From Escherichia coli (GTDB taxonomy: Bacteria; Pseudomonadota; Gammaproteobacteria; Enterobacterales; Enterobacteriaceae), in NCBI RefSeq assembly GCF_003334405.1, contig NZ_QOWM01000003.1: a stretch of DNA of 64,000 nt, one strand, 5' to 3'. This document shows positions 19,545 through 19,580 of this stretch, piece after piece (position 1 is the first letter of the stretch; each line of letters begins with the position of its first letter). The notes beneath the pieces were generated by a model. It ran no database searches and was not told the origin of the DNA. It saw nothing but the letters and a program-made list of their open reading frames with translations. Made by a program: the position numbers and the translations under genes.

Positions 19545-19580
19545 CTGTGAAAACTGTGATGAAAATCTGTGATTCAAACA
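19545..19580. promoter_or_regulatory. three direct CTGTGA repeats in the ydjG-ydjF intergenic region (candidate regulator binding site or promoter element)
   Basis: CTGTGA at 19545, 19554 and 19567, each followed by an A-rich tract (tctgtgaaaa / ctgtgatgaaaa / ctgtgattcaaa), 75-110 bp upstream of ydjF. Confidence 0.3.

Follow-up and report, generated by a model that had tools for sequence, protein, structure and literature searches.

The chromosomal stretch of Escherichia coli analysed here (64 kb; hereafter, the window) carries ydjLKJIHG, ydjF, and ydjE, all on the + strand. Our interest lies in the 136 bp spacer between ydjG and ydjF, which includes CACCTCTGTTTCTGTGAAAACTGTGATGAAAATCTGTGATTCAAACAGGTTATTTTGAAAGTAAACATCGGTTATGCGATAAT and in which a first-pass annotation had noticed three direct copies of the hexamer CTGTGA. 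The features of the region discussed below, several of them predicted, are as follows.

18538-19518, + strand: ydjG, the 5′ neighbour of the spacer
19535-19553, + strand: conserved block A, ACCTCTGTTTCTGTG(T)AAAA, region of the putative upstream YdjF half-site
19545-19550, + strand: repeat 1 (CTGTGA), core of the presumptive upstream half-site TTCTGTGA, inside block A
19554-19559, + strand: repeat 2 (CTGTGA), E. coli-specific; supplies the well-matched half (TGTGA) of the CRP box
19555-19570, unstranded: CRP box TGTGATGAAAATCTGT, centre 19562.5, approximately -60.5 from the predicted start
19563-19584, + strand: conserved block B, AAATCTGTGATTCAAACAGGTT, holding repeat 3 and the 17-mer at 19565-19581
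19567-19572, + strand: repeat 3 (CTGTGA), core of the presumptive promoter-proximal half-site ATCTGTGA
19588-19616, + strand: ydjF sigma-70 promoter, TTGAAA, 17 bp spacer, extended -10 TGcGATAAT
19627-19646, unstranded: TGATGTAAAAAGATACAGGG, LexA-like box at +5 to +24 (ydjF leader), outside the repeats
19655-20413, + strand: ydjF, GTG start, annotated in RefSeq as a DeoR/GlpR family regulator

The ydjF promoter matched 10 of 12 hexamer positions, plus the TG, in our promoter scan, and it is kept in the alignment of ydjF upstream regions described below (A1). Transcription is predicted to start at ~19623, 7 nt past the -10 GATAAT. Identical promoter hexamers are listed for ydjF among the RpoD “constitutive promoters”, which were selected in vitro by RpoD holoenzyme alone (PMC3946193). 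No terminator was predicted 3′ of ydjG, and an Rfam scan of 19300-19800 returned no credible match to an RNA element. Beyond ydjF, the spacer that leads to ydjE contains a GC-rich hairpin (GCGGCAA-gtgaa-TTGCCGC, 20477-20495), followed ~10 nt further 3′ by a T-run; the hairpin may act between the two genes as a weak terminator or as an attenuator.

The three CTGTGA copies had been described as starting at 19545, 19554, and 19567 on the + strand, each followed by an A-rich stretch, and the sequence bears out both statements, the stretches being AAAAC, TGAAAAT, and TTCAAAC, respectively. The copies lie 16-43 bp 5′ of the ydjF -35 hexamer (approximately -78 to -51 relative to the predicted start). 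CTGTGA as such is not over-represented in the window, where it occurs 18 times on the two strands together (25 expected). In a look-elsewhere test, shuffled 64 kb windows were searched for stretches of 28 bp in which some non-trivial 6-mer stands in three non-overlapping copies; there were 0.37 such loci per shuffled window, and one or more turned up in 32% of the shuffles. Two are present in the real window, the CTGTGA triple and three copies of TGATAT at 23649. Because shuffles often yield tripled 6-mers, the triple alone is weak evidence, and the functional case depends on comparative evidence and not on copy number. The pattern TCTGTG-N14-17-TCTGTG, for its part, occurs once in the window (repeats 1 and 3) and in none of 100 shuffles. 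The TGATAT triple, which is the sole other tripled 6-mer of the window, spans 21 bp (23649-23669) directly 5′ of the ansA start codon on the minus strand.

For the comparison between species, the ydj cluster was taken from 22 further species, and the ydjF upstream regions were aligned (A1, 24 sequences, from the genera Escherichia, Citrobacter, Klebsiella, Raoultella, Budvicia, Yokenella, Intestinirhabdus, Symbiopectobacterium, and Serratia). The gene order ydjLKJIHGFE was intact in 20 of the 22 species; one further locus begins inside the cluster, and that of Serratia H1w is truncated and was set aside as uninformative for ydjL. Repeats 1 and 3 fall in two blocks that are conserved across at least eight enterobacterial genera: block A (A1 consensus ACCTCTGTTTCTGTGTAAAA) holds repeat 1, block B (A1 consensus AAATCTGTGATTCAGACATGTT) holds repeat 3, and the two are spaced 21-22 bp apart in most of the 24 sequences. 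The mean consensus fraction was 0.95 in block B, compared to 0.60 in the variable stretch of ~9 bp between the blocks and 0.70 at the third codon positions of ydjF. Repeat 1 reads CTGTGT, with T as its sixth base, in all species other than E. coli, whilst repeat 3 is kept in 22 of the 24 sequences (K. michiganensis has CTGCTA, and Serratia H1w has CTGTGT). Repeat 2 sits in the least conserved columns of A1, within the variable stretch; E. whittamii has CTATGA at this position, and the sequences of Citrobacter and Klebsiella are unrelated. Conservation in related genomes, by which the first-pass annotation had proposed to judge its site, is a property of repeats 1 and 3 across genera, whereas repeat 2 is missing outside E. 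coli.

Within E. coli, the locus is carried by 4330 of 5426 complete genomes (1096 are without it), and 3284 of the 4330 are identical over 19520-19600. The variants that we sampled retain all three repeats, with the exception of strain LZYWN_4 (L037, locus 1500-1630), in which a 12 bp deletion between TGAAAA microrepeats removes repeat 2. Other natural rearrangements at the spacer are an IS1 insertion in CUPF09 and, in one strain, the replacement of ydjG upstream of 19411. Positions 19576, 19580, and 19585 are polymorphic among the sampled variants, and two of these, 19576 and 19580, are the positions at which the K-12 allele of the 17-mer departs from the ancestral form. In that form, the 17-mer is an imperfect palindrome, ATCTGTGA-T-TCAGACAT, located at approximately -58 to -42. 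The proximal 17-mer of the K-12 type reads TCAAACAGG; ATCC 25922 has the ancestral TCAGACATG, including the ancestral right arm, and other strains are intermediate. This polymorphism in the right half could change the strength of the putative operator between E. coli lineages.

The same motif recurs at the promoter of ydjL, and a further copy lies inside the ydjL gene.

13067-13101, unstranded: putative operator region of the ydjL promoter, palindrome TGTAAAACGCAGAT-TATT-ATCTGTGTTTTACA plus the 17-mer ATCTGTGTTTTACAGAT (13085-13101)
13484-13500, + strand: operator-like site TTCTGTGTTGTACAGAA inside ydjL, a 14/17 match to the ydjL promoter 17-mer

The two arms of the ydjL palindrome (13067-13098; 14 nt each, 93% complementary) lie just 5′ of the -35 hexamer, and the upstream block conserved across species reads TATTTGTGATCTGAGTTGTGAAATGCAGATCATTATCTGTGTTTTAAAGATTT. 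The inverted repeat was also marked as a hairpin by our terminator scan, and it is conserved across genera. At both promoters, ATCTGTG begins 23 bp before the -35 hexamer (13085 to 13108 at ydjL, 19565 to 19588 at ydjF), and the two sequences continue to agree past it, as ATCTGTG(A/T)TT(C/T)A(G/A)A(C/G)AT. Exact matches to TCTGTGWTTYA number two in the 64 kb, one at each of these promoters, and in the related loci the motif is likewise confined to them; the presumed target operon therefore has the motif at its promoter, that of ydjL. When matrices of the ydjL-type and ydjF-type 17-mers were scanned against each other's sites, they reached only ranks 7-8 of 128,000 positions, a result that favours the shared register without being overwhelming, and we therefore regard the palindromic 17-mer as a tentative model. 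The ydjL promoter itself is ambiguous in a simple promoter scan, where TTGACC-17-AAGTAT (8/12) fell below the threshold. We nevertheless prefer this assignment, because the Firmicute homologues have TTGACT-17-TATAAT/TATTAT at the same place. According to published work, the ydjL promoter shows no activity in culture but is reliably switched on in the mouse gut.

The distance from the promoter copy to the intragenic site is 399 bp. Conservation at the third positions of its codons (FLCCTE) is 0.96 across 23 genomes, including that of Agarivorans, compared to a mean of 0.69; no other window in ydjL reaches this value, and it is also the highest when the top windows listed for each of the eight cluster genes are compared. 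The window of six codons has no Met or Trp codon that could inflate the figure. Its sole tolerated synonymous change, CTG to CTT, parallels the ATCTGTG/ATCTTTG variation that is seen among the promoter copies. Judged by these sequence features, the intragenic site may serve as an auxiliary operator.

Clusters of the type ydjLKJIHG-F, encoding YdjF proteins that are ~58-72% identical to that of E. coli, were also found at seven distant loci (L038-L044), in Agarivorans, Caproiciproducens, Anaerostipes, Vallitaleaceae, Clostridium thailandense, and a metagenome-assembled genome labelled Neobacillus. The distribution points to a horizontal spread of the ydj cluster between Proteobacteria and Firmicutes, and the Firmicute clusters carry an extra gene for ribulose-phosphate 3-epimerase. 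In Agarivorans and the Clostridia, the motif is again present upstream of the ydjL and ydjF homologues. We scored these loci with a 14-mer matrix built from enterobacterial sites only, over ~41,000 positions per locus, and the best placements were the following.

Agarivorans (L038), ydjL upstream: rank 1 of ~41,000
Caproiciproducens (L040), ydjL upstream: rank 1 of ~41,000
L039, ydjL upstream: rank 2 of ~41,000
L039, ydjF upstream, minus strand: rank 1 of ~41,000

Combined over the seven distant loci by Fisher's method, the test gave p = 7e-5. The ydjL ranks of 1, 2, and 1 come from three clusters whose YdjF proteins are 63-70% identical to that of E. coli, and the two most distant Firmicute loci (YdjF 58%) were individually non-significant in the matrix test. 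The motif thus travels with the regulator across distant taxa, and YdjF is the sole DNA-binding protein that travels with it. The spacing is also kept: half-sites are 22 bp apart, start to start, at E. coli ydjF and 21 bp apart at enterobacterial ydjL, and tandem copies in Agarivorans, Caproiciproducens, and Anaerostipes are 20-21 bp apart, that is, at helical-turn spacing. In Caproiciproducens, the motif stands between the -35 and -10 hexamers of the ydjF promoter (AAAAATCTGTGTTTATGTGGTATAAT).

What might bind these sites? The first-pass annotation had offered two suggestions for the triple, namely a direct-repeat site for autoregulation by YdjF, or a set of CRP-like half-sites. The former fits repeats 1 and 3, which form a conserved direct pair of (A/T)TCTGTG, 22 bp from start to start, whose motif recurs elsewhere in the cluster; it does not fit repeat 2, which stands outside this design, 9 and 13 bp from its neighbours and so outside helical-turn spacing. 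The regulator gene is adjacent, as ydjF begins 83 bp downstream of the repeats, and it is the only gene of the cluster that encodes a DNA-binding protein. YdjF has full-length NCBIfam matches to the GlpR, AgaR, FucR, and SrlR models, all of them below the equivalog cut-offs, and the sequence of its helix-turn-helix (VTEETIRRDLEKLE) hardly varies, even among homologues with as little as 58% overall identity. From the sequence comparisons, the motif of repeats 1 and 3 is probably the binding site of the cluster regulator YdjF, and the 17-mer at 19565-19581 is its putative main operator. The half-sites may be arranged in direct or in inverted orientation. Motifs for Cra, IHF, TyrR, GalR, and LysR-type regulators, compared by eye, did not fit the two promoters jointly. 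A full-text literature search found no study of YdjF binding or of a YdjF operator; its matches to B. subtilis “ydj” genes concern unrelated genes that share only the name.

Repression is the action of YdjF that we favour. Most members of the DeoR/GlpR family are repressors, and the ydjL promoter, inactive in culture and active in the mouse gut, behaves as a repressed promoter might; furthermore, in Clostridia the site at ydjF overlaps core promoter sequence, and the pairing of an upstream with an intragenic site suggests looping. Against this, the Proteobacterial sites lie 5′ of the -35 hexamer, a location more typical of activators, and the activator FucR is among the closest family models of YdjF. 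Given the upstream position and the kinship with FucR, YdjF might instead be an activator.

The second suggestion, CRP, holds for repeat 2, which contributes to a published CRP box, and fails for repeats 1 and 3, which form no CRP boxes. By genomic SELEX-chip, ydjF was identified among new cAMP-CRP targets, with a peak in the ydjG-ydjF spacer and with binding that depended on cAMP (Shimada 2011; PMC3105977). The resolution of the method is a few hundred bp; Table S3 of that paper gives the box ACAGATTTTCATCACA for the peak (ydjF< <ydjG), and we find that this is the reverse complement of 19555-19570. The box is built from the TGTGA of repeat 2 together with the start and flank of repeat 3, and it reads TGTGA-TGAAAA-TCTGT, matching TGTGA-N6-TCACA at 5/5 positions in the left half and 2/5 in the right. 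With a CRP matrix constructed from the 149 other SELEX boxes of Table S3 (quartile 8.2 bits, median 11.1 bits), it scored 8.6 bits and ranked 22nd in the 64 kb window, 21 other places scoring at least as high; the next-best score within the spacer was 2.9 bits. As a positive control for the matrix we used a strong CRP box in the msrB-gapA spacer (TGTGATTTTCATCACG, 11946-11961, 17.3 bits), which agrees with the published gapA site. We rejected repeats 1 and 3, and likewise the ydjL promoter, as CRP sites: no score exceeded 5.4 bits, and the SELEX list gives no peak for ydjL. Our search of the literature found no in vivo CRP data for the ydjG-ydjF spacer.

The centre of the box, at -60.5 from the predicted start, is a class I position. 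The box is not conserved among CRP-containing relatives: in two other Escherichia species, the score at the orthologous position is 5.4 and 2.9 bits, and other genera have no box there. We conclude that it arose in the E. coli lineage, for example by a change of TATGA to TGTGA, and the substitutions that separate E. whittamii from E. coli lift the score from 5.4 to 8.6 bits. The box also overlaps the ATCTGT of the proximal putative operator, so that CRP and YdjF, if both bind here, must compete or touch each other. Taking the evidence together, we consider it probable (roughly 60%) that the spacer holds a conserved YdjF operator that, in E. coli, has been overlaid by a CRP site at a class I position.

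Of the competing explanations, the one that survives best would make repeat 2, and hence the triple, a neutral accident of drift or of slippage between TGAAAA...TGAAAA, with CRP binding in SELEX being without effect in vivo. This reading accords with the 0.37 tripled 6-mers expected per window, with the location of repeat 2 in the spacer between the half-sites, the fastest-evolving part of the region and out of helical phase with both neighbours (9 and 13 bp), with the natural loss of repeat 2 in one strain through the 12 bp deletion, and with the mediocre CRP score. We nonetheless hold it to be unlikely, since repeat 2 is kept in all sampled E. coli variants but one, the sequence being identical in 3284 of 4330 genomes, and since the substitutions relative to E. 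whittamii raised the CRP score, the centre of the box came to lie at a class I position, and the SELEX binding required cAMP.

Considerably less probable is the proposal that the whole triple is a CRP module, in which three CRP half-sites would account for the conservation and YdjF would have no role. TGTGA is indeed the core of a CRP half-site, cAMP-CRP selects the spacer in vitro, and the region upstream of ydjL also has a conserved TTTGTGATCT. However, a single 16-mer of the spacer scores as a CRP box, all others having at most 2.9 bits; the conserved copies are direct, not inverted; the one scoring box is lost outside E. coli, whilst repeats 1 and 3 persist; and ydjL has no listed CRP SELEX peak. 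The motif is, in addition, kept beside the ydj clusters of Clostridia, which are not known to have CRP; a CRP site is thereby ruled out as the identity of the conserved element.

We regard as very improbable the idea that the repeats, punctuated by A-tracts, are a protein-independent element of the UP or curved-DNA kind that stimulates the ydjF promoter. Each repeat is followed by an A-rich tract, the region (-78 to -42) is one where UP elements and bends act, and RNA polymerase alone selects the ydjF promoter in vitro; however, it is the TCTGTG cores, containing G and C, that are conserved, whereas the A-tracts vary and, at intervals of 12-14 bp, do not keep helical phase, and the same core recurs within a coding region.

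Least probable of all is that the CTGT-rich repeats are a non-canonical LexA target that places ydjF under SOS control, for, although the half-site is CTGT, ydjF groups with lexA in an expression-profile study (PMC6055005), and a passage of PMC3542263 cites a “type III” LexA ChIP-chip target at ydjF (Wade 2005), the repeats have CTGT-N7-ACAG (19567-19581) in place of the required CTGT-N8-ACAG and score at most 5.1 bits, and the degenerate box that PMC3542263 proposes for this target (TGATGTAAAAAGATACAGGG), which is our best box, lies outside the repeats, scores 8.4 bits, and is present only in the Escherichia sequences of A1. The LexA matrix was built from LexA boxes, the weakest real one scoring 12.6 bits. 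Its positive control was a strong LexA-like box elsewhere in the window (TGCTGGTTATCTATCCAGTG, 51008-51027, 19.1 bits). From its map position, the latter is probably the SOS box of cho (ydjQ).

Under the preferred reading, a conserved YdjF operator overlaid by an E. coli CRP site, regulation might proceed as follows. YdjF, probably as a dimer of dimers in the manner of other DeoR/GlpR proteins, would bind upstream of its own promoter, at the direct pair of half-sites that are approximately two helical turns from each other, and would bind the matching sites at the ydjL promoter and inside ydjL. It would thereby keep the ydjF and ydjL promoters repressed until it is released by an inducer derived from the pathway, and the upstream and intragenic sites of ydjL, ~400 bp apart, may cooperate by looping. 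In E. coli, point substitutions in the variable spacer between the half-sites would have created repeat 2, and the resulting CRP box, at its class I position, would put the regulator gene ydjF under catabolite control. The fuller version of this proposal, which we consider less likely than not, is that YdjF controls a gut-induced ydj sugar-acid cluster through three operators, that the intragenic copy has been under selection at synonymous sites from E. coli to Agarivorans as part of a ~400 bp loop, and that the spacer of the ydjF operator recently became a CRP site in E. coli. The last of these steps, if true, would be an event open to dating, in which catabolite control was extended to a local regulator gene.

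Both the CRP box and the ydjF promoter had been reported before. The model of a YdjF operator, together with its intragenic copy, appears to be new, as our full-text literature search found no description of it. ydjLKJIHG is among the better-conserved sugar clusters of E. coli that lack a known physiological substrate and known regulation. For this cluster, the model offers defined, mutable sequences (two promoter sites and one intragenic site) and names a protein to purify, whose release from the sites could serve as a screen for the natural inducer. The CRP box found only in E. coli would be a small example of a transcription factor site born by few substitutions within an existing control region. 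General principles are unchanged by these findings, and the region is an ordinary, but informative, promoter control region.

Among known systems, the CRP box resembles those of lac-type class I promoters (centre -61.5) in having one consensus TGTGA half, a 6 bp spacer, a centre at approximately -60.5 from the predicted start, and published cAMP-dependent CRP binding to the spacer in which it lies. It differs from them in that its second half is poor (TCTGT versus TCACA), in being confined to E. coli, in overlapping another conserved element, and in being known from binding in vitro.

The putative YdjF sites can be compared with the operators of the DeoR/GlpR family. GlpR uses tandem operators and extra sites inside glpD, E. 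coli DeoR uses three looping operators, and B. subtilis DeoR has an operator at approximately -60 to -43 plus a direct repeat. Similarly, ydjF lies within its presumed target cluster, its half-sites are separated by whole helical turns, a second set of sites stands at the operon promoter, and an operator-like intragenic copy is found ~400 bp away. In contrast, the ydj motif, (A/T)TCTGTG(A/T)TT(C/T)A, is unlike the half-sites of DeoR (TGTTAGAA) or GlpR (TGTTCGA), the Proteobacterial ydj sites are clear of the -35 and -10 hexamers, and the ydj operators are putative, being drawn from comparison of sequences.

A third comparison is with the gal operon, where GalR, a repressor of the LacI type, loops OE and OI, which are 113 bp apart. 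gal and ydj have in common an upstream operator near -60, a downstream intragenic operator, and a CRP site in the same upstream region, with the ydj operators being putative. They differ in the family to which the repressor belongs and in the distance between the operators (~400 bp versus 113 bp), and looping is a conjecture for ydj.
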